This document shows positions 2,231 to 56,654 of a DNA stretch of 64,000 bases, piece by piece (the stretch's first letter is position 1; the number at the start of each line of letters is the position of its first letter). Source of the stretch: Minisyncoccota bacterium (lineage in GTDB: Bacteria; Patescibacteriota; Minisyncoccia; Phycocordibacterales; UBA9973). Under the pieces are notes generated by a model. That model was not told the origin of the DNA. It did no database searches and was given only the letters and a program-made list of their open reading frames with translations. The position numbers and the translations under genes were made by a program. The stretch lies in contig JBAZKU010000001.1 of the NCBI GenBank assembly GCA_041650615.1, forward strand, positions 458,750 to 522,749. Reading direction: 5' to 3'.

Positions 2231-4672
2231 TTATTTAACCTCTCCAAAATTATTACCTGAACCGGAATGCACTATCAAAGGAATGTCAGTTTTATAATGC
2301 AAATATGACCGTTCAAGCACTGTCTGCATGGCATTTTTTATTATTTTTTCAGCTTCCGAAAGCTCTTTCCCCTCTACTTCATAAACTAATTCATCGTGTA
2401 TTTGGAGCACAAGATGAGTCTTATTCAACAGATCTGCTTTTTTTAAGTCTTCCTCCGCATATCTTATGGCTAACTTTATTATATCGGCGGTAGCTGTCCC
2501 CTGGACCGGCGCATTAGTAGCGGTACGTTCAGCCATATTTTTTAAAAATGGAATTCTAGAATTTATATTTGGGAAATATCTGCGTCTGCCAAATAATGTT
2601 TCCGTATAAAAATTTTTCATCGCAAATACTTTTACTTTCTCCAAATAATTTCGCACGCCGGAAAATTGGTTAAAATAATTATCATAGAATTTTTGCGCTT
2701 CGGGACGAGTTCCTCCCAAGCTTTTGCGCAAAGACGAGACTCCCATGCCATAGATAATGCCGAAGTTTATTACCTTGGCTTTGCGTCGCATTTCATTATC
2801 TACTTTTTCCATAGGTATGCCAAAAACAAACGAGGCTACCCCTGCGTGAATATCTTTGCCTTCACGAAATATCTGGGTCATTTTTTTATCTCCTGAAAGC
2901 ATCGCTATCACTCGAAGTTCAATTTGACTATAGTCAAAGGTCAAAAGTTTATATCCTTTTTCCGCGATAAAACCATTTCTTATTTTCTTGCCCAATTCTG
3001 TTTTTATCGGCAAATTTTGCAAATTTGGATCTTGGGAAGAAAATCTTCCCGTAGTTGTGCCATTTTGTAAAAATTTTGCATGTAAACGGCCATCTTCACT
3101 GACCATTTTAGGAATCACATCAATATAAGTAGAAAGCAGTTTTTGTAATTCTCTATAAGCCAAAATTTCTTTTATGATCGGATTATTTTCCTCCAATTCT
3201 TCCAGGACTGAAACTTTAGTGGAAAAAGATCCGTTTACTCCTTTTTTCTTGCCTGATTTCATTCCCATTTTGCCGAAAATTATTTCACCTAGCTGTTTGG
3301 GTGAGTTGATATTAAATTCTGTACCAGCTATTTTATATATTTTAGCCGTCAGTTTATCCAGCTCTTGGTGATATTCTTTTGACAAATTTTCAAAATATTT
3401 TTTATCTATCAAAATACCGTAATTCTGCATTTCTTTTACTGTATGTATTATCGGTTTTTCTATTTCTTCATACACTTTGTCTAGTTTTTTTTCTTTTAAT
3501 TGTTTAAAAATATATTCCTGAGCTCTTTCAAAATTATCAGTTCTGGAAAAATGTAAAATATCTTCCAAAGATGGGTTAGTTATATCTGAATTTAAGAGCC
3601 AAAGAGCGATAGAAGTTTCTTGAAGTTTTTCTTCGTCTACAAATGATGCCAGACGACCATGCTCGGAGGAGTATTCGCTGCGACCAGAAATATCTTGCCC
3701 TTCCAAGATAGTGTGCGAACGACGGAGAGCATGGTCGTCTGGCATTTCCCCCTGTTTATTCCCAAAGAAGTTTTTTAGCCGCGCAAATAAGCTTCTGAAT
3801 TCAAATTCGGAGAAAATATTTTCAATTTTTTTCAAATCCGCATTTTCCCAAAAAGTTTTTTTAGGCAATTCAAAATTTATCGGGGCATCTGTTCTTATTT
3901 TTGCCAAAGTTTTTGAAAACAGGGCTTCTTCTTCGTTATTTTTTATAAGTTCCAATATTCTAGGGGAAATGCCATTTTTTATAAATGCATTTTCATCTTT
4001 TTTTAATTTTTTATAAATTTCTTCTATGGTTCCGAAGTTTACAATTAAATTAGTTGCGGTTTTTTCACCAATACCTTTAATCCCAATAATATTATCAGAC
4101 GGATCTCCTCGCAATCCTTTATAATCCGGTAAAAGTTTCGGCTTAAAGCCAAATCTTTCAACCACTTTTTCTTCATCATATAAAATAGTGTCATTGATTC
4201 CTTTTTTTAATGTATATACTTGCACTTTTTTATCATCTATCAGTTGCATAGTATCCATATCGCCTGAAGCAATAATTATATTCATATTTTTGTCTTTCTT
4301 TAGTTCTTTTACTATGGTACCCAACACATCATCCGCTTCAAACCCCGGCGCATCATAAATAGGAATATTAAATGCTTCAAAAATTTGTCTGGAGTTTTTT
4401 AATTGTGCAATAAGACCTTCTTCTGCCTTCGCTCTCCCTGCTTTGTATCCTTCATAAACCTCATGTCTGAAAGTTTTTTGTGGCAAATCATAACAAGCTA
4501 CAATGTAGTCTGGTTTTAGGTCAGTAATTATTTTCATCAACATAGTAGAAAGCCCATATAAAGCCCCTGTCGGCTCGCCCTTGGATGATAAAAACTCCGG
4601 CAGGGCATGATAGGCGCGGTGTATTATCGCATGCGCATCCAGTAATACTAATGTCTTATTTTCCTTAGCCAT
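2231..4672 (-). CDS. polA: DNA polymerase I
   Basis: 5'-3' exonuclease N-terminus, DYSQIELRV and QIHDELV polymerase motifs; carries an in-frame palindromic insert at 3649-3742. Confidence 0.95.
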   Translation of the reverse strand: MAKENKTLVLLDAHAIIHRAYHALPEFLSSKGEPTGALYGLSTMLMKIITDLKPDYIVACYDLPQKTFRHEVYEGYKAGRAKAEEGLIAQLKNSRQIFEAFNIPIYDAPGFEADDVLGTIVKELKKDKNMNIIIASGDMDTMQLIDDKKVQVYTLKKGINDTILYDEEKVVERFGFKPKLLPDYKGLRGDPSDNIIGIKGIGEKTATNLIVNFGTIEEIYKKLKKDENAFIKNGISPRILELIKNNEEEALFSKTLAKIRTDAPINFELPKKTFWENADLKKIENIFSEFEFRSLFARLKNFFGNKQGEMPDDHALRRSHTILEGQDISGRSEYSSEHGRLASFVDEEKLQETSIALWLLNSDITNPSLEDILHFSRTDNFERAQEYIFKQLKEKKLDKVYEEIEKPIIHTVKEMQNYGILIDKKYFENLSKEYHQELDKLTAKIYKIAGTEFNINSPKQLGEIIFGKMGMKSGKKKGVNGSFSTKVSVLEELEENNPIIKEILAYRELQKLLSTYIDVIPKMVSEDGRLHAKFLQNGTTTGRFSSQDPNLQNLPIKTELGKKIRNGFIAEKGYKLLTFDYSQIELRVIAMLSGDKKMTQIFREGKDIHAGVASFVFGIPMEKVDNEMRRKAKVINFGIIYGMGVSSLRKSLGGTRPEAQKFYDNYFNQFSGVRNYLEKVKVFAMKNFYTETLFGRRRYFPNINSRIPFLKNMAERTATNAPVQGTATADIIKLAIRYAEEDLKKADLLNKTHLVLQIHDELVYEVEGKELSEAEKIIKNAMQTVLERSYLHYKTDIPLIVHSGSGNNFGEVK
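3649..3742. repeat. GC-rich palindromic element inserted in frame in polA (16-nt terminal inverted repeats CCAGACGACCATGCTC / GAGCATGGTCGTCTGG)
   Basis: Perfect 16-nt inverted repeat flanking ~62 nt of GC-rich sequence inside a ~33% GC gene; encodes ...DDHALRRSHTILEGQDISGRSEYSSEHGRLAS... with no stop. Confidence 0.7.
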
Positions 4673-4750
4673 TGTGTAAATTATAGCAATAAACGAGGAG
4701 CATAAACAAACATCTTAAACAGGCAAGGCCTGTTGAATATTAAATAATAA

Positions 4751-4786
4751 AAAAAATCCCTCGAACAAAGTGTCCAAGGGATTAAG
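4751..4786 (-). terminator. Hairpin plus T-run downstream of the 204-aa GC-rich gene
   Basis: AATCCCT...AGGGATT stem followed by a T8 run on the minus strand. Confidence 0.4.
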
Positions 4787-4811
4787 AAAATAAGTGTCAG
4801 CAACATAAGAT

Positions 4812-5426
4812 TCAAATGGTCTGTTGCGGGACCACAACACGAAGAGCGTACCGAGCGCACCACACACGGGCGTCCTCAAACCGGTCCACGAAGACATGCA
4901 AGCCGTCAGAGTTCACGATCACGCAGGCAACAAAGAATTGATCCTCAACCTTAAATAGGAAGAAGGTCGCATAACCATCAGGACGTAATCGGTTTGAATA
5001 CTTTTTGCAAAACATTTTTATTTGGTGTTGTGTTAGGCACAACTTGTCCAAATCAGTTCCGAGAGAACCGAATATTTGTGCAAATGTGGCATCTTTCACC
5101 ATTTCGTGAACAGCAACCGCAGTTTCTTTGGTTGCCTTGCCTGACTTGTCGGTATTCCAATTTTTAAAATCTGAGTCGATACCAGACTTAAAGATTTCGT
5201 TGGCGGTTGCTAGTATTTCTGATCCATCACATGCGTCAATGATAATAGTTTCCGTCTCAAAAAGACGACGGAGATAAGTCTTAACATCAGCAACTTCGTC
5301 AACGACACCTTGGAGGATTTCTGCAACCTTTTCGGGGTCACGAACTCCATCCATAATCATTTTGCAAATCATGGCCCAAAGTTTAAAGAGCCGTTCATAT
5401 TTATTTACATTTTTCTCGTTACTCAC
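4812..5426 (-). CDS. Hypothetical protein, compositionally atypical (GC ~45%)
   Basis: 204-aa ORF with no family I recognise; GC visibly higher than flanking genes. Confidence 0.5.
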
Positions 5427-5594
5427 GATATGCTCCTTTCAAAGAAATTATTTGCCTGTTACTCACAAGCATATTCTGGGTCCTGCCAGATCAGTTGCAA
5501 GGAATCCCTTGCCTATCTACATGCTAGTATATCACTTTAAATTAAAAAGTCAAGGGGGTAATGGGGAGAACAATGTTGTATTATTAAAGGATAA

Positions 5595-8653: not shown

Positions 8654-8655
8654 TT

Positions 8656-17585: not shown

Positions 17586-18329
17586 ATGCTGTCAAATATT
17601 TGGAATACTATTTTATACGGGCCGCTTTTAAACGCATTGGCCTTTTTAGTTTCTATTATCCCAGGTGGAGATATCGGTATTGCCGTTATTATCCTTACTC
17701 TTTTTGTTAAAACTGTGTTATTTCCCCTTTCCCAGCGCTCTATTGAAAGTCAGATCAAAATGAATTTACTTGCTCCGGAACTTAAAAAAATAAAAGATAG
17801 TGGAGTTTCCAAAGAAGAACAGGCAAAACAAACTTTTGAACTTTATAAACACCATAAAACTAATCCTTTTTCCGGATGCCTATTGATTTTTATTCAAATC
17901 CCTATTATTTTTGCATTATATTATGTTTTTTTAAAGGGAATAAACTTAGAAAGCGGGCTGTATTCATTCATTCACGCTCCAGAACATATAAATATGCTTT
18001 TTTTGGGAATTCTGGATATCAGCCAAAAGAATATCTTAATTTTAGCAATACTGGCAGGGATCTCTCAATATTTTCAAGCGAGCCTTATGCCCAAACCGGC
18101 TATTTCAGAAAAAATCGACAAATCTTCTTTCCAAGAAAATATGACCAAAAGCATGCAGACACAAATGAAATATGTTTTCCCATTTATAATTGCCTTTATC
18201 GCTTATAGTGTTTCAGGCGCAGTTGCATTATATTGGATTACGAGTAATATATTTGCCATAGGTCAACAAATGTATGCCAACAAGAAAAAACGATTAGCCA
18301 TTGAAGCAGTAAATAATATTCATGAATAA
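17586..18329 (+). CDS. yidC: Membrane protein insertase YidC/Oxa1 (short form)
   Basis: Five-TM 60-kDa_IMP core, conserved operon position. Confidence 0.85.
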   Translation: MLSNIWNTILYGPLLNALAFLVSIIPGGDIGIAVIILTLFVKTVLFPLSQRSIESQIKMNLLAPELKKIKDSGVSKEEQAKQTFELYKHHKTNPFSGCLLIFIQIPIIFALYYVFLKGINLESGLYSFIHAPEHINMLFLGILDISQKNILILAILAGISQYFQASLMPKPAISEKIDKSSFQENMTKSMQTQMKYVFPFIIAFIAYSVSGAVALYWITSNIFAIGQQMYANKKKRLAIEAVNNIHE

Positions 18330-18864
18330 AATTGAAATGCAAAATTTAATAAAAGAGCTTATTGAAAAAACCACTATCCCAGTAAATAAAATTTCTACAG
18401 ATGAAGATAGGCCTGTTTCTCTCAACTCAAATGGAGACAAAACCACCTGGTTTTCAGTGGAAGTAAGTCAACCGCATTTTTTCTGGGAACGCGGAGGTGA
18501 AGCTCTTTTTGCTATTAATCATCTTGCTCGCAGAATGATTGAAGCCAAAACTCTCAAAATAGCCCCCAAGTCGGACTTAGGGGATTCCCCTAAGTCCGAC
18601 TTGGGGATACCACAAGAAGGATTGGGAATTTTGATTGACATTAATGGTTTTCAAAAAAAACGTATAGAAAATATCCATGCAATAGCGCATATGATGGCCG
18701 AAAGAGCTAGATATTTTAAATCAAACATAGAAGTTGATCCGATGCCAGCCTTTGAACGTAGAATAGTTCATGAATTTTTATCTAGTGCAACTGATTTAAA
18801 AACTGAATCACAAGGCGAAGGTTTTGCCCGCCGAGTAGTTATCAAGTATATAGGGGCTATATAA
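18322..18864 (+). CDS. jag: Jag/KhpB-like RNA-binding protein (KH + R3H)
   Basis: R3H motif RRIVHEFL; contains an in-frame 43-nt perfect palindrome. Confidence 0.8.
   Translation: MNKIEMQNLIKELIEKTTIPVNKISTDEDRPVSLNSNGDKTTWFSVEVSQPHFFWERGGEALFAINHLARRMIEAKTLKIAPKSDLGDSPKSDLGIPQEGLGILIDINGFQKKRIENIHAIAHMMAERARYFKSNIEVDPMPAFERRIVHEFLSSATDLKTESQGEGFARRVVIKYIGAI
18564..18606. repeat. Perfect 20/20 palindrome (CCCCAAGTCGGACTTAGGGG-ATT-CCCCTAAGTCCGACTTGGGG) inside the jag coding sequence
   Basis: Arms are exact reverse complements; encodes the duplicated peptide PKSDLGDSPKSDLG in frame. Confidence 0.75.
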
Positions 18865-34648: not shown

Positions 34649-35515
34649 CTATCCTTTTTTGTTAATATCTATGGCTTTGGCAAGATTTAACCAATCTTCC
34701 AACGTCAGTTCTTCTGCCCTTTTATTCCCAAGTATCCTGGCGGAAGCTATTCTTCCGTATTTTGAGAGAGTTTTTAAATTTGAAGAGAGTTTTTTTCTCT
34801 TATGCGCAAAACCAGCGTGAATTATTTCCCAAAATTTCTCTTCATTTATTTTATTTTTAATAAAATTTTTTCTGGAAATATTTTTAATAGCAATGACCAC
34901 TGAATTCACATTAGGAACGGGTGAAAAGTACCGTGCCGGTACCTTCATAATCGTTTCAGGATTTCCATATGCTTTTACCGAGATTGAAAGAATGCTTTCT
35001 TTTTTATCTCTAGCCATAATTCTTTTGGCGACTTCGTTTTGAACCATCAATATCATTCTTTCCGGCTGATTTTTCTCCGTCAGAAATTTTTTTAATATTG
35101 CGCCAGTGATATTGTAAGGTATGTTGGCAATAATTTTATATTCAAAATCTGGGTGTTTCTTTCGATTTTGAGCTTCCCGAGGGGCCCACTCGGTAATCCG
35201 AGAAGGGCGCAGGGACGAAAAATCGGAAGAAACATCCAGATTTAAGATATCGTCATTTATTAGGATCAATTTCTCATCTTTAATTTCCTTAGAAAATTTT
35301 TCTTGCAAAAATTTAAAAAGTTCATAGTCTTTCTCTATGGCAATTACACAGCCAGCTCTTTCTAAAAGTTTTTCTGTCAGTGCGCCTTTTCCAGGACCGA
35401 TTTCTAAAATAATATCTTCTTCAGAGATTTCCCCAGCTTCCACTATTTTTTTTAGCGCCAAAGCAGACTTTAAAAAATTTTGCCCTAATGATTTTTTTGC
35501 CTTGTATATTTTCAT
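34649..35515 (-). CDS. rsmA: 16S rRNA (adenine1518/1519-N6)-dimethyltransferase
   Basis: LGQNFL motif and SAM-binding EIGPGKGALT; carries an in-frame GC-rich repeat insert at 35170-35223. Confidence 0.9.
   Translation of the reverse strand: MKIYKAKKSLGQNFLKSALALKKIVEAGEISEEDIILEIGPGKGALTEKLLERAGCVIAIEKDYELFKFLQEKFSKEIKDEKLILINDDILNLDVSSDFSSLRPSRITEWAPREAQNRKKHPDFEYKIIANIPYNITGAILKKFLTEKNQPERMILMVQNEVAKRIMARDKKESILSISVKAYGNPETIMKVPARYFSPVPNVNSVVIAIKNISRKNFIKNKINEEKFWEIIHAGFAHKRKKLSSNLKTLSKYGRIASARILGNKRAEELTLEDWLNLAKAIDINKKG
35170..35223 (-). repeat. Family C GC-rich palindromic element inserted in frame in rsmA
   Basis: ~54 nt nearly identical (reverse complement) to the intergenic copy at 51432-51481; encodes SLRPSRITEWAPREAQNR. 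Confidence 0.75.
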
Positions 35516-39990: not shown

Positions 39991-40142
39991 ATGTAAAAAG
40001 ACCACCAAATATAACCACAATTTAAACAATGTAAAAAGACCACCAAATATAACCACAATTTAAACAATGTAATAAAGACCGTTAAATATAACCACAATTT
40101 AAACAATGTAAAAAGACCCTGAATATAATCGCAATTTTAAAT
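39991..40142. repeat. Tandem direct repeat, 4 copies of a ~38-bp unit (ATGTAAAAAGACCACCAAATATAACCACAATTTAAACA)
   Basis: Copies 1 and 2 identical, copies 3 and 4 degenerate; no spacers, so not CRISPR; sits between two tRNA genes. Confidence 0.85.
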
Positions 40143-41851: not shown

Positions 41852-42778
41852 ATGAGAATTGGAATTTTTGATTCGGGGGTGGGAGGGCTGATTATTGCCA
41901 AAGCGATAAGAAAAATGATGTCGGAATATGATTATGTATATTTAGGAGACACCAAAAGAGTGCCTTATGGTAATCGCTCATATGAGGCAGTTTTTGAATT
42001 CACTAAAGAAGCGATGAATTATCTATTTAAGAAAGAAAATTGCGCCATTGTCATTATTGCTTGTAATACAGCCTCTGCTAGAGCTCTCCGAAGAATTCAG
42101 CGGGAATATTTGGTTGATTACAATGCTACTCGCAGAGTAATGGGGGAGTCTGTTGAAAGAAAAATATTGGGAGTTTTGATTCCAACGGCGGAAGAATGCA
42201 CTAAATATAAAAGAGTGGGGATATTGGGAACTGCGGGAACAATAAATTCGAATACTTTTCCGAAGGAGATAAAAAAAGTAAATTCACAAAAGAAGAAAAG
42301 TTTGCTGCTTTTTCACGGCTCGCACTCGAACTTGGATGCGGTTAACGAGAGTAATCTTGCGTATGCCGAAAAAAGCACAAACTTTTCTTCTTTTACAACA
42401 GTTTTCCAAAATCCTGCGCCGATGCTTGTGCCTTTGATTGAAGAAGGGGAGAGAGTTTTAGCCAAAGAATTTCTTAAAAAATATTTAAAGCCATTTTTAA
42501 ATAAAAAACTGGATGCAGTAGCGCTTGGTTGCACTCATTATCCGTTTTATAAAAGTGAAATCAAAAAAATTCTTGGTCCAAAAGTAAAAATTATTTCTCA
42601 AGACGAAATTATTCCTAAAAAACTAAAAGAATATTTTGCGAGACATCCGGAGGTCACAAAAAAATTAACCCAAAACAGTAAAGCTCAAATACTTGTCACA
42701 GACTTAACTCCCAATATCCTGAAACTTTCAAAAAAATGGTTTGGAGGGAAGATAAAACCAAAACTGATTAGCCTATAA
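41852..42778 (+). CDS. murI: Glutamate racemase
   Basis: GIFDSGVGGL and ACNTAS catalytic Cys motifs; contains a ~35-aa insertion relative to typical MurI. Confidence 0.85.
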   Translation: MRIGIFDSGVGGLIIAKAIRKMMSEYDYVYLGDTKRVPYGNRSYEAVFEFTKEAMNYLFKKENCAIVIIACNTASARALRRIQREYLVDYNATRRVMGESVERKILGVLIPTAEECTKYKRVGILGTAGTINSNTFPKEIKKVNSQKKKSLLLFHGSHSNLDAVNESNLAYAEKSTNFSSFTTVFQNPAPMLVPLIEEGERVLAKEFLKKYLKPFLNKKLDAVALGCTHYPFYKSEIKKILGPKVKIISQDEIIPKKLKEYFARHPEVTKKLTQNSKAQILVTDLTPNILKLSKKWFGGKIKPKLISL

Positions 42779-43641: not shown

Positions 43642-43663
43642 ACATTATTATGATAACATAAAG

Positions 43664-43766
43664 TCGTGAAACTAAGATTTTTTCACCACGAAAATTTTCT
43701 GCTGAAAATTTTCTCTGTCCGTCGCCGTCGCTCCTCCCAAGGGTTCAAAAATCTTAGTTTCACGAC
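43664..43766 (-). repeat. Family B MITE-like element, intergenic copy, with 20-nt terminal inverted repeats GTCGTGAAACTAAGATTTTT / AAAAATCTTAGTTTCACGAC
   Basis: Perfect TIRs flank a GC-rich core (GAACCCTTGGGAGGAGCGACGGCGACGGACAGAGAAAATTTTCAGCAGAAAATTTTCGTGGTGA) shared with the uvrD insert. Confidence 0.8.
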
Positions 43767-43767
43767 T

Positions 43768-44682
43768 TTATTTGTGACTGTGAAACTTTTTATGTACATC
43801 TAGTAATTGCCTGTCAGTAACGTGAGTATAAATTTGAGTTGTGGCGATATTGGAATGTCCAAGCATCATTTGAACAGAACGGATGTCTGCGCCGTTTTGC
43901 AATAAATCCGTAGCGAAACAATGCCTAATTATGTGCGGGGTAACTTTTTTTGAAATACCGGCCTTAATCGCATATTGTTTCACAATTCTTTCAATAGACC
44001 TCTTGGTTAATGGACCAGTTTCTTTTTGAGAAGTTTCCTTTCCCACTTTTACAAAGAGCGCATCATCCATATCTTTTCGCAATGCCAGGTATTTTTTAAT
44101 GGCATCTTTCGCTTCGGGAGATATAAAAACCACTCTGATTTTTCCCCCCTTGCCACGAATGGAAAATTGTTCAGATCCGAGATCAATATCATTAGTTAAA
44201 CTACAGAGCTCAGAAACACGAAGACCGGTGGAAAAAAGGAGTTCCAATATAGCTTTATCTCGCAATGATTTTATGTCATTTCCTTTAGGTGCATCAAGCA
44301 GGCGGCGAAGTTCTGTTTGGGTGATTAAATCAAGAGATCTTTCCGTGATTTTAGCCAATTCTATTCTTTCAGCTGGCATTGATTTTATTCCTTGTCGTGC
44401 AAGATATTTCAGAAAGGCTCTTATGGCTATCAGATAATAATTTTGGGTTTTTTTAGACAAAGTTTCGCCTGTAGCTTTATTATTACCGGTGGATTGGCGA
44501 TTAAGCCAAAGACGAAATTCCCGCACGGTGTTGTCGTTTATATTTGTTGGATTATCATTTTTTACGAAATCTAAAAAGCGAGTAAGGTAATGGTCATAAT
44601 TTCTAACCGTATTAAGCGCTCGGCCTCTTTCTATTTCTACATATTCCAAAAATTGAGTTTTAAGCTGTTTGAGGGATGCCAT
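43768..44682 (-). CDS. xerC: Tyrosine site-specific recombinase XerC/XerD family
   Basis: R..HxxR..Y catalytic region HIIRHCFATDLL...LGHSNIATTQIYTHV. Confidence 0.9.
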   Translation of the reverse strand: MASLKQLKTQFLEYVEIERGRALNTVRNYDHYLTRFLDFVKNDNPTNINDNTVREFRLWLNRQSTGNNKATGETLSKKTQNYYLIAIRAFLKYLARQGIKSMPAERIELAKITERSLDLITQTELRRLLDAPKGNDIKSLRDKAILELLFSTGLRVSELCSLTNDIDLGSEQFSIRGKGGKIRVVFISPEAKDAIKKYLALRKDMDDALFVKVGKETSQKETGPLTKRSIERIVKQYAIKAGISKKVTPHIIRHCFATDLLQNGADIRSVQMMLGHSNIATTQIYTHVTDRQLLDVHKKFHSHK

Positions 44683-44720
44683 AATCTAATTTTACCATGT
44701 CGCACAATATTTTAGAAGGA

Positions 44721-44812
44721 AAATCGTTGCCTATGAAGAATTTAAGAAACGTGTGGGTTCCCTGTCCTTTTGACTCCGAGGGCGCAATTTCGAAATTCTT
44801 CATAGGCAACGA
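44721..44812 (+). repeat. Family F structured element in the rpsO 5' region (21-bp closing stem ATCGTTGCCTATGAAGAATTT / AAATTCTTCATAGGCAACGAT around a GC core GTGGGTTCCCTGTCCTTTTGACTCCGAGGGCG)
   Basis: Perfect long inverted repeat; core is near-identical to the copy at 63621-63713. Confidence 0.7.
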
Positions 44813-44855
44813 TAAAACCTTGCAATTTCAACGACTTTATGCTAATGTGAAGTAC

Positions 44856-45119
44856 ATGTTAACCACAAAGAAAAAGCAAACAATTATAAAGAAAAATCAA
44901 ATTCATGAGAAAGATACTGGCTCTTCTGAGGTTCAGGTAGCTGTTTTATCCACTCAAATAGAAGAATTGGCAAAACATTTAAAAAAACACAAAAAAGACA
45001 ACAGTTCTCGCAGGGGGCTTATTAAAATGGTAGCTGATAGGCGTACTCATTTGAAGTATTTAGAACGCAAAAACAAGCCTCGTTATAATGCACTCATGAA
45101 AAAGATGAATCTCGTCTAG
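44856..45119 (+). CDS. rpsO: 30S ribosomal protein S15
   Basis: 87 aa, GSSEVQVAVLSTQIEELAKHLKKHKKDNSSRRGL matches the S15 family; the upstream part of the 44697 ORF is a spurious extension. Confidence 0.9.
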   Translation: MLTTKKKQTIIKKNQIHEKDTGSSEVQVAVLSTQIEELAKHLKKHKKDNSSRRGLIKMVADRRTHLKYLERKNKPRYNALMKKMNLV

Positions 45120-45768: not shown

Positions 45769-47880
45769 ATGAAGAAAAAAGAGTATTCAGTTGAAATCGG
45801 CGGCAAGACATTGACTGCTATTTTCTCGGATTTAACAGAGCAAGCACATGGGTCCGTGATTTTAAAATACGGTGAAACAATTGTGTTGGCAACAGCTTGT
45901 ATGTCCAAAGACAGACAAGAAGGTTTGGGATTTTTTAATTTGACAGTAGATTATTTGGAAAAATTTTATGCTACCGGAAAAATTTTAGGGTCGCGCTTTA
46001 TGCACAGAGAAGGGAAACCATCAGAAGATGCAATTCTAGCTTGCCGAGTGATTGACAGAACTCTCCGTCCGCTTTTTAACCAATCTATCCGTCATGCTGT
46101 GCAAGTTATCACCACGGTCATTTCTTTAGACCAAGACGACCCGACAATTTTGGCCATCAACGCTGCTTCTCTTGCTTTGGCGGTATCTAATATTCCTTGG
46201 GCAGGACCAATCGGCGCAGTGCGTATTGGAAAATACGACGATGATAATTTGAAAATAAACCCCGCGCAGGGATTGCGACAAGATGATACAAAATATAAAT
46301 TTGACTTAACTATTTGCGGGAAAGATGGCAACTTGAATATGATTGAAGCCTCGGCTCATCAGGCCAAGGAAGAAGAATTGGAGGAAGCATTTAAAGTAGC
46401 AAGTGAGGAAATAACCAAATTAGAAAATTTTCAGAAAAAAATAGTGGCTGAAATAGGTATTCCAAAAAGGGTAATAGAAGAAGAAAAAATATCAGATGAA
46501 TCAGTAAAATTATTTAATGAAAATATATTACCGAAAATGAAAAGCGCCCTATTTGCCGGAGCCGGAAAAAAGAAAATAGACGAACTACATAATGTTTGGA
46601 ATAAAATGGTGGCAGAAAAATACCCGGACAGGGATGATTTCACTTTAGAGGATAATCTTTTTGATAACACGGAAAATAATATGCTACACGAAAAGGCTAT
46701 AAAAGAGAACAAGCGCGCCGATGGCCGGGCGATGGATGAAATTCGGGACCTTTATGTTCAAGCTGGAGGAATTTCTTCAATTTTGCATGGTAGCGGAATT
46801 TTTTATCGCGGAGGAACGCATGTGCTTTCTATCCTTACTCTCGCTGGCCCCGAAGAAAAACTTTTAGTTGACGGCATGGAAACAAAAGAAGAAAAAAGAT
46901 TTATGCATCATTATAATTTCCCGCCTTATTCCAGTGGGGAAGTTGGTCGTATAGGCACTACTAATCGCAGGGAAATCGGTCACGGGGCATTGGCTGAAAA
47001 AGCTTTAGCGATGGTTTTGCCGAGCGTGGAAGATTTTCCTTACACTATGCGCCTGGTTTCCGAATCAATGGCATCAAATGGTTCTACTTCTCAAGCTTCA
47101 ATCTGTGCATCCTCTATTGCCCTAATGGATGGAGGGGTTCCGATTAAAGCGCCGGTTGCTGGCATTGCTATGGGGCTGATGTATAAGAATAACAACGAGT
47201 ATAAAATTTTAACCGATATTCAGGGACCGGAAGACCATCATGGTGATATGGATTTTAAAGTTGCAGGGACAAAAGAAGGAATTACAGCCATTCAACTTGA
47301 TGTAAAAGTGGAAGGAGTGCCGATAAAAATATTAGCTGAAGCGATGGAACAATCCAAGAAAGCAAGAATCGCAATTTTGGATAAAATTGAAAAAGAAATT
47401 CCTACACCAAGAGCTCATATTTCTCCTAATGCACCAAAGATTCTGATTATCAGAATTAAGCAAGACCAAATCGGTATGGTTATCGGAAGTGGAGGAAAAA
47501 CTATTAAAGACATAAAAGATAAAACAGGGGCGGAAATAACTATTGAAGATGATGGCACAGTGTATTTAACTGGAAAAGATGATATGGCGGAAAAAGCTAA
47601 AGCTATTATAGAAGAAATGACTCATGAATTTAAAGTTGGAGAAGTGTTGAAAGGGGAAGTGGTTAAATTGGCGGATTTTGGAGTGTTTGTCAGATTAAAT
47701 CCTTTTACCGACGGGATGGTGCATATTTCCGAAATGGCTCCGTTTCGCGTAGAACGAGTTAGCGATATAATAAGAGAAGGGACAATTGTGCCAGTGAAGG
47801 TTATAAAGATTGATGAGGAAAGAGGGAAAATCAGCTTATCAATAAAAGAAGCAGATAAGAATTTTTTTAAGAAGCCTTAA
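45769..47880 (+). CDS. pnp: Polyribonucleotide nucleotidyltransferase (PNPase)
   Basis: Two RNase PH domains, KH and S1 C-terminal domains. Confidence 0.95.
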   Translation: MKKKEYSVEIGGKTLTAIFSDLTEQAHGSVILKYGETIVLATACMSKDRQEGLGFFNLTVDYLEKFYATGKILGSRFMHREGKPSEDAILACRVIDRTLRPLFNQSIRHAVQVITTVISLDQDDPTILAINAASLALAVSNIPWAGPIGAVRIGKYDDDNLKINPAQGLRQDDTKYKFDLTICGKDGNLNMIEASAHQAKEEELEEAFKVASEEITKLENFQKKIVAEIGIPKRVIEEEKISDESVKLFNENILPKMKSALFAGAGKKKIDELHNVWNKMVAEKYPDRDDFTLEDNLFDNTENNMLHEKAIKENKRADGRAMDEIRDLYVQAGGISSILHGSGIFYRGGTHVLSILTLAGPEEKLLVDGMETKEEKRFMHHYNFPPYSSGEVGRIGTTNRREIGHGALAEKALAMVLPSVEDFPYTMRLVSESMASNGSTSQASICASSIALMDGGVPIKAPVAGIAMGLMYKNNNEYKILTDIQGPEDHHGDMDFKVAGTKEGITAIQLDVKVEGVPIKILAEAMEQSKKARIAILDKIEKEIPTPRAHISPNAPKILIIRIKQDQIGMVIGSGGKTIKDIKDKTGAEITIEDDGTVYLTGKDDMAEKAKAIIEEMTHEFKVGEVLKGEVVKLADFGVFVRLNPFTDGMVHISEMAPFRVERVSDIIREGTIVPVKVIKIDEERGKISLSIKEADKNFFKKP

Positions 47881-47918
47881 TGTTATTTAAAAACTCTTTC
47901 TCGGTATATCTTTTTCTA

Positions 47919-47985
47919 GGGTACGGATTTTTTGAAGCTTAAAAAATCCTGAAGTTCTCGGCTCGTCAGCCTCGAAACCCCCTAA
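47919..47985 (+). repeat. Family A REP-like element (copy 1), 39 nt downstream of the pnp stop
   Basis: GGTACGGATTTTTTGAAGCTTAAAAAATCCTGAAGTTCTCGGCTCGTCAGCCTCGAAACCCC; contains a 9-bp hairpin GGATTTTTT/AAAAAATCC. Confidence 0.8.
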
Positions 47986-48021
47986 AAAAGATACACCTTC
48001 AACGAGTTTTTAAAATCAATT

Positions 48022-48894
48022 ATGGAAAACGAAAATAAATTTAAAAATAAAAATGTGGAAACCTATACCAGAGATATGGTAAAGGCTATTGAAAATGATA
48101 AAGGAGGATTGATAAAAAAAATAATTCACGAAGAAGAAGAGCATGAGGCTCAAAAGAAAAATTTATCTCCCGGCTCAAAGAAAAACAGGATATTTATGTT
48201 TATAAGCGTAGCACTTATATTTATAGCTTTAGCTGCTTTGTTTTTTTTGATATTTTTAAATAAAAAAATCGGCACCGTTTCAATTGTGCCACAAATGACT
48301 TCAATTATTTTTACCGATAAAAGTGATTTTAAAGCAATTGACGGACTTAATAAAGATAAAATAGAACAGACTGTTTTAAATCAGGTTAATGATACTGGAA
48401 CGAAGATAGGGGGAATAGATGGCATCTATCTTACGGAAAATAAAGAAACCGTAGGTTTTAAAGAATTTATAAAAATTATAAAAGGCAGTTTGATTGCTGA
48501 CCAGACGAGCTTAATTAGCGACAATTTTCTATTAGGAGCGTATGTAAGCGGCATAAAACAGACATCGCCCTCAGCAGGAGATTTTTTCATCTTGCTCAAT
48601 GTTCGTTCTTTCTCCGATATATTCCCAGTAATGCAAGCTTGGGAGAACAAAATGTTATATGACTTGGGTGGATTTTTCGGAATAGAAATAACTCCCAATA
48701 CCAATTATTTATTTACGAAAAATTTTGAGGATGGCATAGTGGCAAACAAAAATGCGCGAATTCTTTATGATAATAATGGGGGTATTGTTTTGATGTATAT
48801 ATTCGCCGACGATAATTTCATTATCATTTCCAATTCCGAATTAGCTACCCAGGAAGTAATCCTTCGACTGAATTCCAGTAAGATAAAAAAATAA
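48022..48894 (+). CDS. Hypothetical membrane-anchored protein
   Basis: 290 aa with one TM helix after a charged N-terminus. Confidence 0.5.
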   Translation: MENENKFKNKNVETYTRDMVKAIENDKGGLIKKIIHEEEEHEAQKKNLSPGSKKNRIFMFISVALIFIALAALFFLIFLNKKIGTVSIVPQMTSIIFTDKSDFKAIDGLNKDKIEQTVLNQVNDTGTKIGGIDGIYLTENKETVGFKEFIKIIKGSLIADQTSLISDNFLLGAYVSGIKQTSPSAGDFFILLNVRSFSDIFPVMQAWENKMLYDLGGFFGIEITPNTNYLFTKNFEDGIVANKNARILYDNNGGIVLMYIFADDNFIIISNSELATQEVILRLNSSKIKK

Positions 48895-49321: not shown

Positions 49322-49366
49322 TTAAAAAATAATATAAAATTAATGACAAAAGTAAAAAATTTTGTC

Positions 49367-49434
49367 GGTACGGATTTTTTGAAGCTTAAAAAATCCTGAA
49401 ATTGGCTCGCCGTCGCTCGCCAAACCCCTTAAAA
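49367..49434 (+). repeat. Family A REP-like element (copy 2), 46 nt downstream of the stop
   Basis: Near-identical to copies 1, 3 and 4 (GGTACGGATTTTTTGAAGCTTAAAAAATCCTGAAATTGGCTCGCCGTCGCTCGCCAAACCCC). Confidence 0.8.
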
Positions 49435-49466
49435 TCTTTTCTTTTGCCATTAATTTTTTAATAATC

Positions 49467-51008
49467 ATGAGTTTTGCAAAAGTTTATTCAGCACAAGTAA
49501 ACCTCCTTTCCGGTCAAATCGTAACCATAGAGGTTGATTTATCGCGTGGGTTGCACACTTTTAACGTGGTAGGACTTCCGGATAATGCCGTAAATGAATC
49601 AAAAGACAGAGTAAGTTCGGCTATAAAAAATTCCGGTTTTAAATCTCCCAAAGCCAAGAACCAAAAAATAATCGTCTCCCTTTCACCGGCCGACTTGAAA
49701 AAAGAAGGGCCGTTTTTTGATCTGGCTATTGCCCTCGCCTATATGCTGGCGTCGGAGGATTTAAAATTTGATTCTGAGAAGAAGATTTTTCTTGGGGAAC
49801 TGGGTTTAGACGGAACGCTGCGACGTATCAGGGGAGCGTTGCCCCTCGTTCAAGAAGCCAAGCGAGCCGGATATGAAGAAATCTTTTTGCCGAAAGAAAA
49901 TGCGGTTGAGGCGGCATTAGTGGAAGGGGTAAAAATTTTTGGCGCAAGCAGTTTAAAGGAAGTGGTGGAACATATTAATGAAGAAAAAAACAAGGAAAAT
50001 AAAAAAATAAAAATTCAACCGAAAACAGAAGTAAATTTTAAAAAAGAAAGAAAAAATTCCGACTTTTCTGATATTAGAGGACAAGAAGGCGCGAAAAGAG
50101 GATTGGAAATAGCGGCTGCCGGCGGACACAATATTGCTATGTACGGTCCTCCTGGTACGGGGAAAACAATGTTGGCGAGAGCCTTCTCTCAATTATTGCC
50201 GGACTTAGGGTTGGAAGAAGTTTTAGAGATCACCGGAATACACTCTGTTGCTGGAGTAACGCGAGGGGAATTAATTTCCACTCCGCCGTTTCGCTCTCCG
50301 CATCACACTTCTTCTTATGTCTCAATTATTGGCGGAGGAACTTATCCGAAGCCTGGGGAAGTGACCTTGGCACACAGAGGCGTTTTATTTTTAGATGAAT
50401 TCCCGGAATTTGAAAAAAGAGTAATTGAATCTCTACGACAACCATTGGAAGATAATGTTGTTTCAATTTCTAGAGCCAAAGGAACAGCTTCTTTCCCATC
50501 AAATTTTATTTTAGTGGCGGCAATGAATCCTTGCCCATGCGGGAATACCGGTTCAAAACAAAAAGTTTGTATTTGTAGGCCGTCTGATTTGGATAGATAT
50601 AAAAGAAAATTGTCGGGGCCGATAATGGATCGTATTGATTTGTGGGTTTCTGTCGGTAATGTTGATTATAAAAAGTTGGGGGAGGAGGGAAATGGGGAGA
50701 AAAGCGAAAAAATAAAATACAGAGTGACAAAAGCGCGGGAAATTCAAAAGAAAAGATTTGAAAAATTTGGTAGAAAAATACAAACAAATAGCGAAATGAA
50801 TGTGAAAGATTTATCCGGAATGATAAAACTGAAAGAAGAAGTAAGAAATCTACTGGATGATAGCGCCGAACGTTTGGCCCTCTCCGCTCGTGCTTATCAT
50901 CGGGTTATCAAAATCGCCCGCACTATTGCTGACCTGGAAAATTCAGAGGAAATTAACTCAAATCATATCTTAGAGGCTATACAATACAGACCGAAAGTGA
51001 ATAGTTAA
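49467..51008 (+). CDS. comM: Mg-chelatase-like AAA+ ATPase YifB/ComM
   Basis: N-terminal Lon-like domain, AAA+ Walker A GPPGTGKTMLA, C-terminal Mg_chelatase_C. Confidence 0.9.
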   Translation: MSFAKVYSAQVNLLSGQIVTIEVDLSRGLHTFNVVGLPDNAVNESKDRVSSAIKNSGFKSPKAKNQKIIVSLSPADLKKEGPFFDLAIALAYMLASEDLKFDSEKKIFLGELGLDGTLRRIRGALPLVQEAKRAGYEEIFLPKENAVEAALVEGVKIFGASSLKEVVEHINEEKNKENKKIKIQPKTEVNFKKERKNSDFSDIRGQEGAKRGLEIAAAGGHNIAMYGPPGTGKTMLARAFSQLLPDLGLEEVLEITGIHSVAGVTRGELISTPPFRSPHHTSSYVSIIGGGTYPKPGEVTLAHRGVLFLDEFPEFEKRVIESLRQPLEDNVVSISRAKGTASFPSNFILVAAMNPCPCGNTGSKQKVCICRPSDLDRYKRKLSGPIMDRIDLWVSVGNVDYKKLGEEGNGEKSEKIKYRVTKAREIQKKRFEKFGRKIQTNSEMNVKDLSGMIKLKEEVRNLLDDSAERLALSARAYHRVIKIARTIADLENSEEINSNHILEAIQYRPKVNS

Positions 51009-51032
51009 AAAGCAAAGAACAATATTTTTGCC

Positions 51033-51100
51033 GGTACGGATTTTTTGAAGCTTAAAAAATCCTGAAATTGGCTCGCCGTCGCTCGCCAAACCCCTTAAAA
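51033..51100 (+). repeat. Family A REP-like element (copy 3), 25 nt downstream of the comM stop
   Basis: Same sequence as copy 2. Confidence 0.8.
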
Positions 51101-51140
51101 ACATTGTTTTTTGCTTTTTAGGTTATCCACAGGTGGGTTG

Positions 51141-51407: not shown

Positions 51408-51431
51408 ATTTCGCTCCGTTTCTTCAAATTT

Positions 51432-51481
51432 TTCGTCCCTGCGCCCTTCTCGGAGTACCGAGTGGGACCCTCGGGAAGCTC
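51432..51481 (+). repeat. Family C GC-rich palindromic element, intergenic copy
   Basis: TTCGTCCCTGCGCCCTTCTCGGAGTACCGAGTGGGACCCTCGGGAAGCTC; matches the rsmA in-gene copy. Confidence 0.75.
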
Positions 51482-51511
51482 AAAATTTAAAGAAACTTCG
51501 CTCAGATAAAA

Positions 51512-52078: not shown

Positions 52079-52080
52079 AC

Positions 52081-52112: not shown

Positions 52113-52136
52113 TATTTTTTATCTCGAGATAAAAGA

Positions 52137-52409: not shown

Positions 52410-52603
52410 ATTTTTAAAGGTTATTTTTATAATGCTTTCGACCGTTTGCTTATATAAATACTATCCATACATTATATATCAAGGGTTTTTTAAGGCAAGC
52501 TCCCACACTTTCTTCTCTGAAGCGCTAAAAAGCGTATTGTTATCAATATCAGGGAAGATAGTGTGGGGGCAAGTGTGTCTAAAATAGAAAAAGAATAATT
52601 TTT

Positions 52604-52669
52604 AAAGGGGTTTGGCGAGCGACGGCGAGCCAATTTCAGGAAATTTTAAGCTTAAAAATTTCCGTACCG
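52604..52669 (-). repeat. Family A REP-like element (copy 4, reverse orientation), 28 nt downstream of the rny stop on the minus strand
   Basis: Reverse complement matches copies 1-3, so it is sense to the upstream minus-strand gene. Confidence 0.8.
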
Positions 52670-52696
52670 ACTAAAAATTGATTCTTTTTCTATTTT

Positions 52697-54529: not shown

Positions 54530-54820
54530 TTGATGAAAAAAACCCGAAAGTCTAAGAGAAAAAGAAATTCACTTGAAAAAGACATTGACGCGATAATCAG
54601 TTTTCTTGAAAAAGAAAAAATTAAGAGACTAATAATCAGAAGAGAGATGGATAAAGCCAGAATGGCCTTCTTAAAAGTTGCAGAAAAACTCACTACTCCT
54701 GATTTTAGAGAATTGGATAAATTAATTTCAAGAATTGGTCGGTGTTCTATGACGAGAATTAGCAATCCTCCCCGTTGCAGTAATAGGTATAGTCGTCGTT
54801 CAGGCCACGGGGCGAGATAG
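54530..54820 (+). CDS. Hypothetical basic protein
   Basis: 96-aa ORF with an AGGAG SD; no recognisable family. Confidence 0.35.
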   Translation: MMKKTRKSKRKRNSLEKDIDAIISFLEKEKIKRLIIRREMDKARMAFLKVAEKLTTPDFRELDKLISRIGRCSMTRISNPPRCSNRYSRRSGHGAR

Positions 54821-54833
54821 TTTTTAATACACA

Positions 54834-54873
54834 AAGCCTCATCAATAATATTGATGAGGCTTTTATTTTTCCT
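54834..54873. terminator. Bidirectional intrinsic terminator (AAAGCCTCATCAATA-ATA-TTGATGAGGCTTT + T-run)
   Basis: 13-bp stem between convergent genes. Confidence 0.75.
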
Positions 54874-54881
54874 TTTTAAAA

Positions 54882-55481
54882 CTAGGATTTGGAGAGAGGA
54901 GTTTTTGACTTAGTAACTATTTCATCAATAATCCCATATTTTTTAGCTTCTTCGGCATCCATAAAGAAATCTCTTTCTACATCTTTTTCTATTTGAGGTA
55001 GAGGCTTGCCCGTGTTTTTAGCTAAAATTTTATTTAAATTGTCTTTTGTTTTTAAAATATGTTTTGCGGTAATAGCAATATCCGTAGCTTGCCCTTCCAC
55101 TCCGCCCAATGGCTGATGAATCATTATTTCCGCATTCGGCAAAATAAATCTTTTACCTTTTTTCCCTGCGGATAAAATAATGGCCGCGCCGGACGCTGCT
55201 ACTCCCACACAGAAAGTGGAAATATCGGGGCGGACATGATTCATGGTGTCTACTATCGCCAAAGTGGAAGTGACAGATCCTCCAGGAGAATTTATATACA
55301 AAGCTATATCTTTTTTTGCGTCTTCGGATTCAAGGAAAAGAAGCTGAGCAATGACAATATTCGCCACATTATCGTCAATCGGACCGGCTAAAAAAACTAT
55401 TCTTTCTCGTAAAAGACGAGAATATATATCATAAGCTCTTTCTCCAAATTGTGATTTTTCTATGACTGTGGGTATCAACAT
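54882..55481 (-). CDS. clpP: ATP-dependent Clp protease proteolytic subunit
   Basis: Ser-His-Asp catalytic triad context ([17 protein letters not shown]). Confidence 0.95.
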
Positions 55482-55496
55482 ACAACTATTATAGCA

Positions 55497-56654
55497 CTAT
55501 TTTTGATTTTCTAGAAATTGAAAAACTTTTTCGTTTGTGAGAACATTTTCGGCATGAAGGGTGGCTCGTTCCGGGTCAGCATCTTTATAATGTTCCAATA
55601 TTTTTGCCACCTCATTGGCCACTTGTTCTTTATCTGCTTCAATTTTTTCTATTTCAGCAATTTTATTCAGAATAAGTCCAAGTTTTGCTTTCTTTTCCGC
55701 ATCGATCCTGAATTCTTTTCTTAAATCAGGGACTGTTTTATTCAGATGTTTCAAATAATCTTCAAATTTTAATCCCATTTGAGTGATGTCAGATTCCATC
55801 CTATACAAAATCTTATCCAATTCCACTTCAATCAAAACTTCCGGCATTTCAACTTTTAAGTCATCAATTATTTTTTCGACGATTTTCAATCTGGTTTTCT
55901 CTTTTGCTTGATTTACTTTTTCCAGCTTTATATTTTCCTTTAGTTTTTCTTTGAAATCTACGACATTCTTAAAGGGTCCAAGCGCTTGCACAAATTCATC
56001 ATTAAATTCAGGTAATTCCTGCTTTATTTCCTCTTTCTCTTTTTCGTTATCGTGTTCTTCTCCCTCTTTATGTATATGTTCCTCTGCCTTATCCGCCATA
56101 TGTATTTTAGGAGCGCGAGATTTTCTGATATCCGTGATGGTATCTTCTACTTCTTTTTCTGTTACCTCTGTGTTTTTTTCGGCATCCGTTGTTTCGGAAA
56201 TTATTTTTTTAGCAATCTGTTTGTAATCGGGAAGTTTCATTTCCGGCATAGTGGCTGTTTTAATTTTAAATCCCAATGGGTTTTTGCGGGCAAGTTTGGT
56301 AATAGAAATTTCCGGACGGCTTATAGCGTCAATCCCGTTAGAGGCAGAGGATCGCTGCGAGCCCTCGCGGCCTCTAACGGGATCAATTTTATTTTCTGTT
56401 ATCTCTCCGCTAAGAATTTTAGGGTAAATATCTGAGATAGCCATTTCTGCCATTTCTCCTAAAATTTGTGACTCGGGCACTTTGGAAAGCAAAATATTCT
56501 CTGGAACTTTTCCTTTTCTAAACCCATCTATTTCCAAATTATCCCCGATTCTTTTTAAGGCCTTGTTGAAATATGTTTCAAAAGCATCAGCTTCAATTTC
56601 ACCTTCAATTTCCACTTCGCTTTTTGGAAGTTTTTTAATACTTATCTTTGGCAT
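55497..56654 (-). CDS. tig: Trigger factor
   Basis: N-terminal ribosome-binding domain GFRKGKVP; carries an in-frame palindromic insert. Confidence 0.85.
   Translation of the reverse strand: MPKISIKKLPKSEVEIEGEIEADAFETYFNKALKRIGDNLEIDGFRKGKVPENILLSKVPESQILGEMAEMAISDIYPKILSGEITENKIDPVRGREGSQRSSASNGIDAISRPEISITKLARKNPLGFKIKTATMPEMKLPDYKQIAKKIISETTDAEKNTEVTEKEVEDTITDIRKSRAPKIHMADKAEEHIHKEGEEHDNEKEKEEIKQELPEFNDEFVQALGPFKNVVDFKEKLKENIKLEKVNQAKEKTRLKIVEKIIDDLKVEMPEVLIEVELDKILYRMESDITQMGLKFEDYLKHLNKTVPDLRKEFRIDAEKKAKLGLILNKIAEIEKIEADKEQVANEVAKILEHYKDADPERATLHAENVLTNEKVFQFLENQK
56332..56383. repeat. GC-rich palindromic element inserted in frame in tig (14-nt arms ATCCCGTTAGAGGC / GCCTCTAACGGGAT)
   Basis: Perfect inverted repeat around a GCGAGCCCTCGC palindromic core; encodes VRGREGSQRSSASNGID. 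Confidence 0.75.

Follow-up and report, generated by a model that had tools for sequence, protein, structure and literature searches.

The 64,000-nucleotide stretch of contig JBAZKU010000001.1 analyzed here (positions 458,750 to 522,749; "the window") derives from a Minisyncoccota bacterium, a small-genome groundwater organism that belongs to the Paceibacteria of the candidate phyla radiation (CPR) and is represented by a Paceibacterota metagenome-assembled genome (MAG). The window contains at least 14 short hairpin elements, six of them inside protein-coding genes and eight in intergenic DNA, with at least four multi-copy families among them. The elements are 43–150 nt in size. Their inverted-repeat arms pair into a stem, at whose apex a GC-rich core that contains one or two small hairpins is enclosed. 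[quoted passage not shown] The original prediction, made from the window sequence alone, had proposed that such segments are mobile or repetitive. This is borne out by the recurrence of their cores in other genes, orientations, and genomes and in intergenic DNA, as well as by their presence or absence among close relatives.

Hairpin Elements Within Housekeeping Genes

GC-rich islands bounded by inverted repeats had been predicted in five genes, namely polA, jag, rsmA, uvrD, and tig, of a genome with approximately 33% GC. All five islands are present with slightly larger bounds, in a window whose GC content was measured as 35.3%. The Pfam identities of the five open reading frames (ORFs) agree with the gene names, and each ORF is uninterrupted. 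In polA (ORF 2231–4672), the element lies on the reverse strand in a linker at 3646–3745 (z −5.7), where perfect 19/19-nt arms (3646–3664 and 3727–3745) are separated by 62 nt and the encoded peptide is MPDDHALRRSHTILEGQDISGRSEYSSEHGRLAS. The jag/R3H gene (ORF 18322–18864) contains a forward-strand, 43-nt palindrome at 18564–18606 that is perfect over 21/21 nt (z −8.5) and encodes PKSDLGDSPKSDLG. The element of rsmA (35155–35233, reverse strand; ORF 34649–35515) belongs to a family here termed A, has AT-rich arms of 15–16 nt enclosing a GC-rich core, and encodes VSSDFSSLRPSRITEWAPREAQNRKKH. In uvrD (ORF 35512–37584), a family B element on the reverse strand (36443–36544) consists of 16-nt arms (36443–36458 and 36529–36544) around a core at 36462–36525 and encodes ..SDSPRKFSAENFLCPSPSLLPRVRSR..; it is followed in the gene by a second GC-rich stretch (36387–36442) encoding LSPSETPPQSTPASM. 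The trigger factor gene tig (ORF 55497–56654) carries its element on the reverse strand at 56329–56387, with perfect 14/14-nt arms spanning 56332–56383 and a 48-nt unit at 56334–56381; the peptide reads PVRGREGSQRSSASNG. In single-strand folding, z-scores of these five elements ranged from −5.6 to −8.5, and none of 200 shuffled sequences folded equally well.

A sixth in-gene element was found on the forward strand at 42288–42394 (z −8.2), in an Asp/Glu-racemase-like ORF (41852–42778) that is a probable murI. It possesses arms of 17 + 8 nt and a GC-rich core, encodes KKKSLLLFHGSHSNLDAVNESNLAYAEKSTNFSSF, and matches a locus of a related genome with 82% identity (L145:8603–8675; L-numbers designate loci in the genomes of relatives and P-numbers the orthologous proteins compared). 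This element is presumably an insertion relative to other MurI sequences as well. The predicted number of at least five affected genes thus holds, but "housekeeping" is a safer designation for them than "essential." A census of inverted repeats in the window (arms of at least 12 nt with at most one mismatch, loops of up to 100 nt) yielded 29, as compared to 14.6 ± 4.7 in dinucleotide shuffles. According to a uniform scan, arms of 16 nt or more are nearly confined to the hairpin elements and a few terminators.

Insertions Relative to Orthologs

Alignments with orthologs indicate that all five originally reported segments are insertions and that the peptides are not conserved domain features. 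The loop of rsmA shows a bimodal length distribution across 55 distinct loci, with 7–19 aa in 44 and 29–45 aa in 11 of them. Eight close orthologs (60–75% identity) of 252–263 aa have nothing between the motifs "DDILxF" and "YKIIANIPY," the loop at which the window RsmA and five other orthologs contain SSxFSSLRPS..REAQN. In the AlphaFold model of RsmA, the predicted local distance difference test (pLDDT) score falls below 50 at residues 105–121 within the insert, between well-predicted strands, in a model whose mean pLDDT is only 71. The uvrD site is empty in ten orthologs with 69–81 nt between the anchors (L003, L005, L008, L012, L014, L016, L020, L022, L026, and L030), and eight others have GC-rich palindromes of several kinds. 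Most Tig orthologs (79–88% identity) are uninterrupted and read YPKILEENKIDAISRPEIS, whereas PVRGREGSQRxSASNG is inserted in Tig of the window, P0184, and P0188. The jag product of the window exceeds that of its closest relative by 14 aa, exactly at the palindrome. Finally, the polA linker between FEFRSLFARLK and LQETSIALW contains at least five different element-derived peptides among orthologs, the type found in the window being present in 38 of 120; this linker is an insertion hot spot for different element families.

The in-gene inserts sit in loops or linkers of variable length. Since length variation is common at such locations, native low-complexity linkers with incidental palindromy, or else assembly artifacts, were considered as an explanation. 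This we regard as extremely improbable. It does not account for perfect inverted repeats of 19–21 nt or for the bimodal loop lengths, and the segments have 92–100% nucleotide identity to copies in other genes, intergenic DNA, and other genomes, which amounts to a refutation. As for artifacts, the elements recur in independent assemblies produced by different projects and deposited at JGI, ENA, NCBI, and Logan.

Further length variants of the same proteins were noticed in relatives. Some RsmA orthologs (P0017, P0022, P0114, and P0119) have N-terminal extensions composed of one to three repeats of their own start motif (KKSLGLK..INGF.RAKKALG), and others contain additional insert families after "ISRKxF" (TSPQPSPTPP..LSGE..) and after "NLK" (PLLISP..GGEK). 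In two more distant relatives, homology to uvrD is split into two blocks approximately 1 kb apart (L015: 6686–7495 and 8525–9679; L060: 3723–4496 and 5595–6734), which suggests a larger insertion such as an intein, an intron, or an inserted gene.

Copies in Other Genes and Genomes

Two in-gene elements of the window have near-identical intergenic counterparts within it, as the original prediction had stated. The rsmA copy is the reverse complement of an intergenic family A copy on the forward strand at 51418–51496 (79 nt, 92%), and the arms of the latter differ by compensatory CG→AA and CG→TT changes. Likewise, the uvrD core is the reverse complement of 43683–43746 (64 nt, 98%), which is part of an intergenic family B copy on the forward strand at 43656–43773 (z −8.2). 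The arms of these two family B copies, which in the intergenic one are AT-rich and 27–30 nt long, are unrelated.

To sample family B more widely, metagenome contigs were scanned with the exact 27-nt core of the uvrD-family element. The 89 metagenome stretches retrieved, together with the copies from genome loci and the window, comprise 88 distinct copies, 63 in ORFs and 25 intergenic. The hosts include uvrD (at two sites), rsmA, fmt, and polA, with about a dozen protein sites in all, and in-gene copies lie in either orientation, the encoded peptide being ..RTLGRSDGDGQRKFSAENFRGE.. or ..SDSPRKFSAENFLCPSPSLLPRV... Copies of the rsmA-type family A element with 93–99% identity were found in L001, L002, L004, L084, L150, and other loci; the tig-type element has a further copy at L160:2115–2162; and the jag-type peptide SDLGxSxxSDL is found, at a different position, in the Tig proteins P0184 and P0188 too. 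Among the searches made, elements were found only in Paceibacteria-type (Patescibacteria/CPR) assemblies.

The same cores recur in genomes whose housekeeping proteins are only 60–80% identical. The window family B element, for example, matches the copy in L004 with 98.8% identity over 82 nt, between genomes whose UvrD and RsmA proteins are 69.6% and 61% identical, respectively. Similarly, the tig element and its counterpart in the filled site of L172 have 47 of 48 nt in common, whereas the codons on either side differ in many places. The insert in Tig of the window and the adjacent "SDIYPKILSGEI" are common to more distant orthologs (69–70% identity) and absent from the closest ones, a pattern that hints at recombination.

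RsmA of the window is 100% identical to P0001, which bears the name "Candidatus Pace...", and the syntenic relatives of the window are Nomurabacteria and Paceibacterota MAGs. The relative L167 (81–85% nucleotide identity) shares the orthologous intergenic family B copy and differs from the window by the presence or absence of family C elements at two sites. Downstream of pnp, a family C element fills the spacer in the window (47875–48025, forward strand), and L167 has a 10-nt spacer with neither a hairpin nor any arm sequence. Upstream of pnp, L167 contains the family C element and the window a short unrelated hairpin. Because the empty site downstream of pnp lacks arm sequence, arms and core come and go together.

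On both sides of the tig element lies a 5-bp direct repeat, TCAAT (56329–56333 and 56383–56387; ATTGA in gene sense, ATAGA in L172); the empty site of L173 contains it only once.

Frame Conservation and Encoded Peptides

The inserted peptides comprise 15–48 hydrophilic residues, 48% of which are Arg, Ser, Pro, or Gly, as compared to 17% in the rest of the five proteins; in-frame, stop-free inserts of this composition had been correctly described. In all in-gene copies examined, the host frame is open and free of stop codons, and this applies to the six ORFs of the window, all of which are intact, as well as to the 63 family B copies. The family B consensus of 102 nt (34 codons) is open in four of six frames. 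Two of these are used by the in-gene copies (57 and 6 copies), the dominant frame being the most hydrophilic (grand average of hydropathy, −1.13) and one unused open frame being nearly so (−0.89). At a given site, insert sizes differ among orthologs by multiples of three. Such frame-keeping and whole-codon size differences are predicted by selection on translated inserts and argue against removal of the elements from the RNA; length and frame are not free here, as they would be in an intron-like or excised element. Predicted peptides that span insert junctions include SDGDGQRKFSAENFR and LRRSHxILEGQ.

It was also considered that "intergenic" copies might conceal split genes. This idea was discarded, because excision in silico yields long ORFs only by deletion of a neighbor's stop codon; excising the window copy merely fuses xth with the xerC-like gene described below.

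Conserved Cores on Variable Stems

In an alignment of 78 of the 88 distinct family B copies, pairwise identity is 0.89 in the core (the 27 searched nucleotides being excluded), 0.395 in the arms, and 0.31 in the flanks. Collection by exact core match biases this sample toward conserved cores and inflates the first value, and diverged core variants do exist, for example GRSVDDGQRKFSAENFRGES and GDGQKKFSGEFWSG. Despite their low identity the arms remain complementary. Changes on both sides were found at 21 of 21 stem pairs, 590 cells of the alignment show both-side changes (211 ± 11.5 in shuffles), and 85.9% of cells are paired as opposed to 56–58% with the register slid by one. Few stem pairs are G-U, and changes on one side occur much less often than those on both, which points to DNA-level inverted repeats and not to RNA-pairing selection alone.

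Three further ideas on the arms were rejected. Firstly, arms do not become longer where coding constraint is absent, since family B copies have a median stem span of 24 nt whether they lie in genes or between them (p = 0.45). Secondly, the ratio of G.U to A.C mismatches, which is 58:11 in genes and might be taken as a sign of selection at the RNA level, is 22:23 in intergenic copies. Moreover, the in-gene bias is not independent evidence, because it stems from a mismatch shared within one subfamily. Thirdly, in fmt copies one arm encodes a PDFFLV motif beside VVAYG, from which the idea arose that arms are inverted duplications of the target flank. This fails as a general rule, as a single arm consensus, GGACAAAATATTCTCG, accompanies one family B subfamily in at least six distinct gene sites and the empty sites compared, none of them in fmt, are devoid of arm sequence.

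The same combination of conserved core and differing arms was observed in four family C and two family D copies. Neither this architecture nor the wide distribution of the elements in the lineage had been part of the original prediction. Furthermore, the arm module of the family C copy at 47875–48025, including an asymmetric bulge, is common to copies with B cores in L083, L107, L128, and L133, and at the fmt site orthologous arms bear two core subtypes. Stems and cores are thus separable, interchangeable modules. This modularity raises the question of whether the core alone could be the mobile unit, targeting the apex of pre-existing DNA hairpins such as terminators or the stems of older elements, so that stems would be resident or nested. 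In favor of such a scenario are the arm family that carries either B or C cores, the two core subtypes on orthologous fmt arms, near-identical cores on unrelated arms, and the stacking of several families at the same gene sites. We nevertheless consider it quite improbable. The pnp-downstream site of L167 lacks any hairpin, no palindrome is present at the empty uvrD, rsmA, and tig sites, and the subfamily with a common arm consensus takes its arms along to each of its gene sites.

Intergenic Elements of Families C and D

Besides the copy downstream of pnp, the window contains family C elements in intergenic regions at 49330–49463 and 51006–51120 on the forward strand, the second of which begins at the stop codon of the upstream ORF, and at 52581–52696 on the reverse strand, where compensatory changes affect the AT hairpin. 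Further copies are located at L102:1271–1356, L118:8647–8679, L148:6779–6856, and L167:5517–5578. The core has the structure GGTACGG-[AT-rich palindrome centered on AAGCTT]-CCTGAA..-[small GC hairpin with CGTC loop]-AAACCCC. Family C copies often take up all of the DNA between a stop codon and the following start codon, and their internal hairpins covary.

Family D is represented on the forward strand in the rpsO leader (44723–44813; 21-nt perfect arms and a GC-rich core) and upstream of nusA (63629–63732); the two cores are 97% identical over 32 nt and the arms differ. A third family D core lies at L002:568–621. As annotated, the rpsO ORF (44697–45119, 140 aa) would include the first hairpin. 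However, its S15 domain begins at residue 60 and homology to relatives at residue 40–54 (in one case 68), so that the ORF call is probably over-extended and the family D hairpin would be situated in the rpsO leader, outside the S15 protein.

A search of the window against Rfam 15 identified only six tRNAs at gathering scores and matched no element; at permissive thresholds, the sole match on any element was the generic hairpin MIR7504 (41.7 bits versus 83, on both strands). Outside the elements, uvrD contains a sub-threshold match (35633–35730, reverse strand; 42.6 bits, the gathering score being 65.2) to the Rfam family named "Clostridioides difficile sRNA included into helicase gene" (n00280). 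Conservation of the helicase coding sequence, and not a small RNA, is its most likely cause.

Mobile Elements or Functional Modules?

Several observations weigh against a purely selfish nature of the elements. A comparison at the DNA level of four polA orthologs showed that the element has occupied the same site since before the four genomes diverged. Its arms changed gradually (ATGCCAGACGACCATGCTC, ATTTCTGGCGACAATGCTC, CCTCTTGATGATAATTCTC, and TTTCCTGATAGTAATTCTC) and are 24–72% divergent, yet within each genome 16–19 of 19 positions are complementary. The 63-nt core differs at only 4.8–12.7% of positions. Across its 21 codons, zero to two synonymous changes were counted, as compared to 29–35% of codons elsewhere in the gene, and between the window and L175 none was seen where about seven would be expected. 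This pattern fits purifying selection at the nucleotide level better than neutral selfish DNA, unless the cores are refreshed by conversion from other copies; no second polA-type copy was detected in the window or any fetched locus. All eight family C copies are intergenic and have the same orientation as the upstream gene, which hints at a role at the RNA level; family C could be a 3′-end or processing RNA motif. In addition, a conserved center with varying termini is the reverse of classical MITEs. A target-site duplication is clear for tig only, since family B has a loose TTC/GAA on both sides and none was recognized for families A and C. No transposase was detected among the 17 of roughly 55 window ORFs that were scanned against Pfam, no other candidate mobilizing gene emerged, and no cognate autonomous element was found in the window. 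Translation of the inserts, for its part, is something we infer from their sequences, and the sampling bias described above flatters the conservation of the cores.

Some of these data can be accommodated by a different hypothesis, according to which the cores are functional RNA or DNA signals presented on stem tips and kept by purifying selection for the cell, with the peptides as a tolerated by-product. Conceivably, they could be mRNA signals (for processing, stability, or termination), cause translation to pause at the boundaries of domains, or bind a protein. Besides the co-orientation of family C, it could draw on the polA core, which is more conserved than the rest of the enzyme (synonymous changes in 0 of 21 codons versus 33% elsewhere between the window and L175), on stems that still pair while their sequence drifts at an about neutral rate, on the covarying small hairpins within cores, and on the prevalence of G.U among in-gene family B stem mismatches in mRNA sense (58 versus 11). 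The last point is weakened by the inheritance of largely one mismatch in a subfamily, and the rarity of G-U pairs and of one-sided changes in the stems indicates complementarity at the DNA level. Moreover, family B is found in genes in both orientations, its two window copies being opposite in transcriptional sense, the corresponding sites carry no element in many close relatives, different families are found at one and the same site, and Rfam provided no match. On balance, we consider this hypothesis rather unlikely. Nonetheless, the polA core conservation and the family C co-orientation leave room for a core function at the nucleic acid level or for frequent core replacement by conversion. 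A somewhat broader formulation, which we favor only slightly more and still view as doubtful, is that the cores are sequence-specific nucleic acid modules under purifying selection, borne on stems that merely have to pair and located both in 3′ or intergenic regions and, in frame, within housekeeping mRNAs. Such modules would serve either as a host signal inside coding sequence or as the recognition module of a new hairpin-dependent mobility system that exchanges cores and stems independently.

Proposed Mechanism

If the elements are non-autonomous mobile hairpins, as we consider probable, they would be moved in trans by a putative enzyme that recognizes the folded core. To persist, a copy within a gene would have to be in frame, without stop codons, hydrophilic, and located in a permissive loop, and the survivors would be translated as disordered insertions. 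At the DNA hairpin, intrastrand template switching or arm-to-arm conversion might preserve the complementarity of the arms; selection for the hairpin might also do so, alone or jointly with these processes. Intrastrand template switching would correspond to quasi-palindrome correction, which is established as a mutational process. A symbiotic lifestyle and DNA uptake are ascribed to CPR bacteria. Spread between genomes would probably proceed via DNA uptake and homologous recombination through conserved flanking genes. Phages were considered as vectors and dismissed, as a search with both cores gave no match in 2.9 million viral contigs.

The sole recombinase seen is a XerC/XerD-like tyrosine recombinase, whose gene (43768–44682, reverse strand) adjoins one family B copy. 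It ends within the right arm of the intergenic element, with the stop codon at 43768–43770, and the same arrangement exists in L167. Folded hairpin DNA is a possible substrate of tyrosine recombinases. Conceivable mobilizing enzymes would be this recombinase, the UPF0102/YraN-like nuclease, and HUH or tyrosine recombinases.

An 880-bp segment between polA and a T2SSE-type ATPase gene (4689–5590) is missing from three syntenic relatives, among them L171, in which the flanks have 92–98% nucleotide identity. It contains an ORF of 204 aa (4812–5426) with a GTG start codon and no Pfam match, as well as a stretch of 70% GC at 4817–4909, and looks like a recently acquired accessory gene. Its product was considered as the mobilizing enzyme and set aside, because nothing ties this protein to the elements.

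Comparison to Known Repeat Families

The RPE-1 to RPE-10 families (Ogata et al., 2000; as summarized in PMC10969869) consist of elements of approximately 150 bp, roughly half of which are located in frame in unrelated genes. The elements described here are likewise short palindromic families of a reduced genome, which occur both between genes and in frame in unrelated housekeeping ORFs and specify a family-specific peptide. They also match RPEs in abundance, with at least 14 elements in 64 kb, six of which are in genes, and 88 family B copies in metagenomes, and the 63 in-gene family B copies encode one of two conserved peptides. There are, however, clear differences. RPEs belong to the Alphaproteobacteria (Rickettsiales) and the present elements to the Patescibacteria, and no sequence relationship is expected. 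The elements are shorter (43–118 nt versus about 150 bp), they combine a conserved apical core with copy-specific stems that show pervasive compensatory change and modularity, and their cores are near-identical across species-level or deeper divergence. They thus work like RPEs but are presumably not members of them, and the likeness drawn in the original prediction is apt as an analogy and not as evidence of homology. We know of no enzyme that mobilizes RPEs. The further statement that such elements are not an established feature of CPR genomes agrees with the searched literature, which contained no description for Patescibacteria, although coverage was incomplete and a prior description may exist.

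Bacterial MITEs and other small intragenic mobile repeats include ERIC, Correia/NEMIS, Nezha, and BOX (reviewed in PMC10969869). With these, the hairpin elements share the small size, the lack of own coding capacity, terminal inverted repeats, hairpin transcripts, occasional in-frame copies, and, in tig at least, a short direct repeat. MITEs, however, conserve their termini, which are the sites of a cognate insertion sequence transposase, and vary inside, whereas here the arms are 39.5% and the core 89% identical, and a common arm consensus is restricted to one subfamily of family B.

A third group of possible counterparts consists of sites recognized as folded single-stranded hairpins, namely attC sites, repetitive extragenic palindromes (REPs) and bacterial interspersed mosaic elements (BIMEs) with their REP-associated tyrosine transposases (RAYTs), and the ends of IS200/IS605 elements. 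Such recognition would apply to elements that keep their structure with little conservation of stem sequence. In attC sites, which flank gene cassettes next to the IntI integrase, the center varies and the stem ends are conserved; REPs are approximately 35 nt long and characterized by a GTAG motif and a RAYT gene; and BIMEs are, like the present elements, mosaics of modules. None of the hallmarks of attC or REP were found here, and attC, REP, and IS200-type hairpin sites may serve as mechanistic leads only.

Implications and Additional Observations

Rickettsia has hitherto been the signature case of in-frame coding palindromes, and a second, independent, and apparently richer case in a lineage with reduced genomes suggests a link to lifestyle. 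Dozens of families with hundreds of copies and pairs of empty and filled sites offer a comparative set from which the movement of such elements and the tolerance of proteins toward them could be studied, and the pattern itself, with a conserved core, drifting but complementary stems, and synonymous-site conservation in polA, is unusual. For CPR genomics, the inserts matter because they lengthen proteins and disrupt profile alignments; phylogenies and the assignment of orthologs can be distorted as well. Furthermore, the elements create recombination hot spots, and their near-identical cores can mislead assembly and binning.

Other repeats were also noticed in the window. Between the genes for tRNA-Gly(GCC) and tRNA-Arg(TCG), at 39997–40118, there are three tandem copies (91–93%) of a 38–39-nt AT-rich unit, AAAGACCACCAAATATAACCACAATTTAAACAATGTAA. 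The ORF at 28727–30469 (reverse strand), especially at 29105–29401, contains a pair of 78-nt units at a distance of 99 nt along with a series of 9/12-nt units rich in AGT, TGT, and GGT; its product is a repeat protein of low complexity and has no relation to the hairpin elements. In the close relative L175, genes for bAvd and a reverse transcriptase (RVT_1), the hallmark genes of diversity-generating retroelements, are located beside rpsT (L175:18523–19841).

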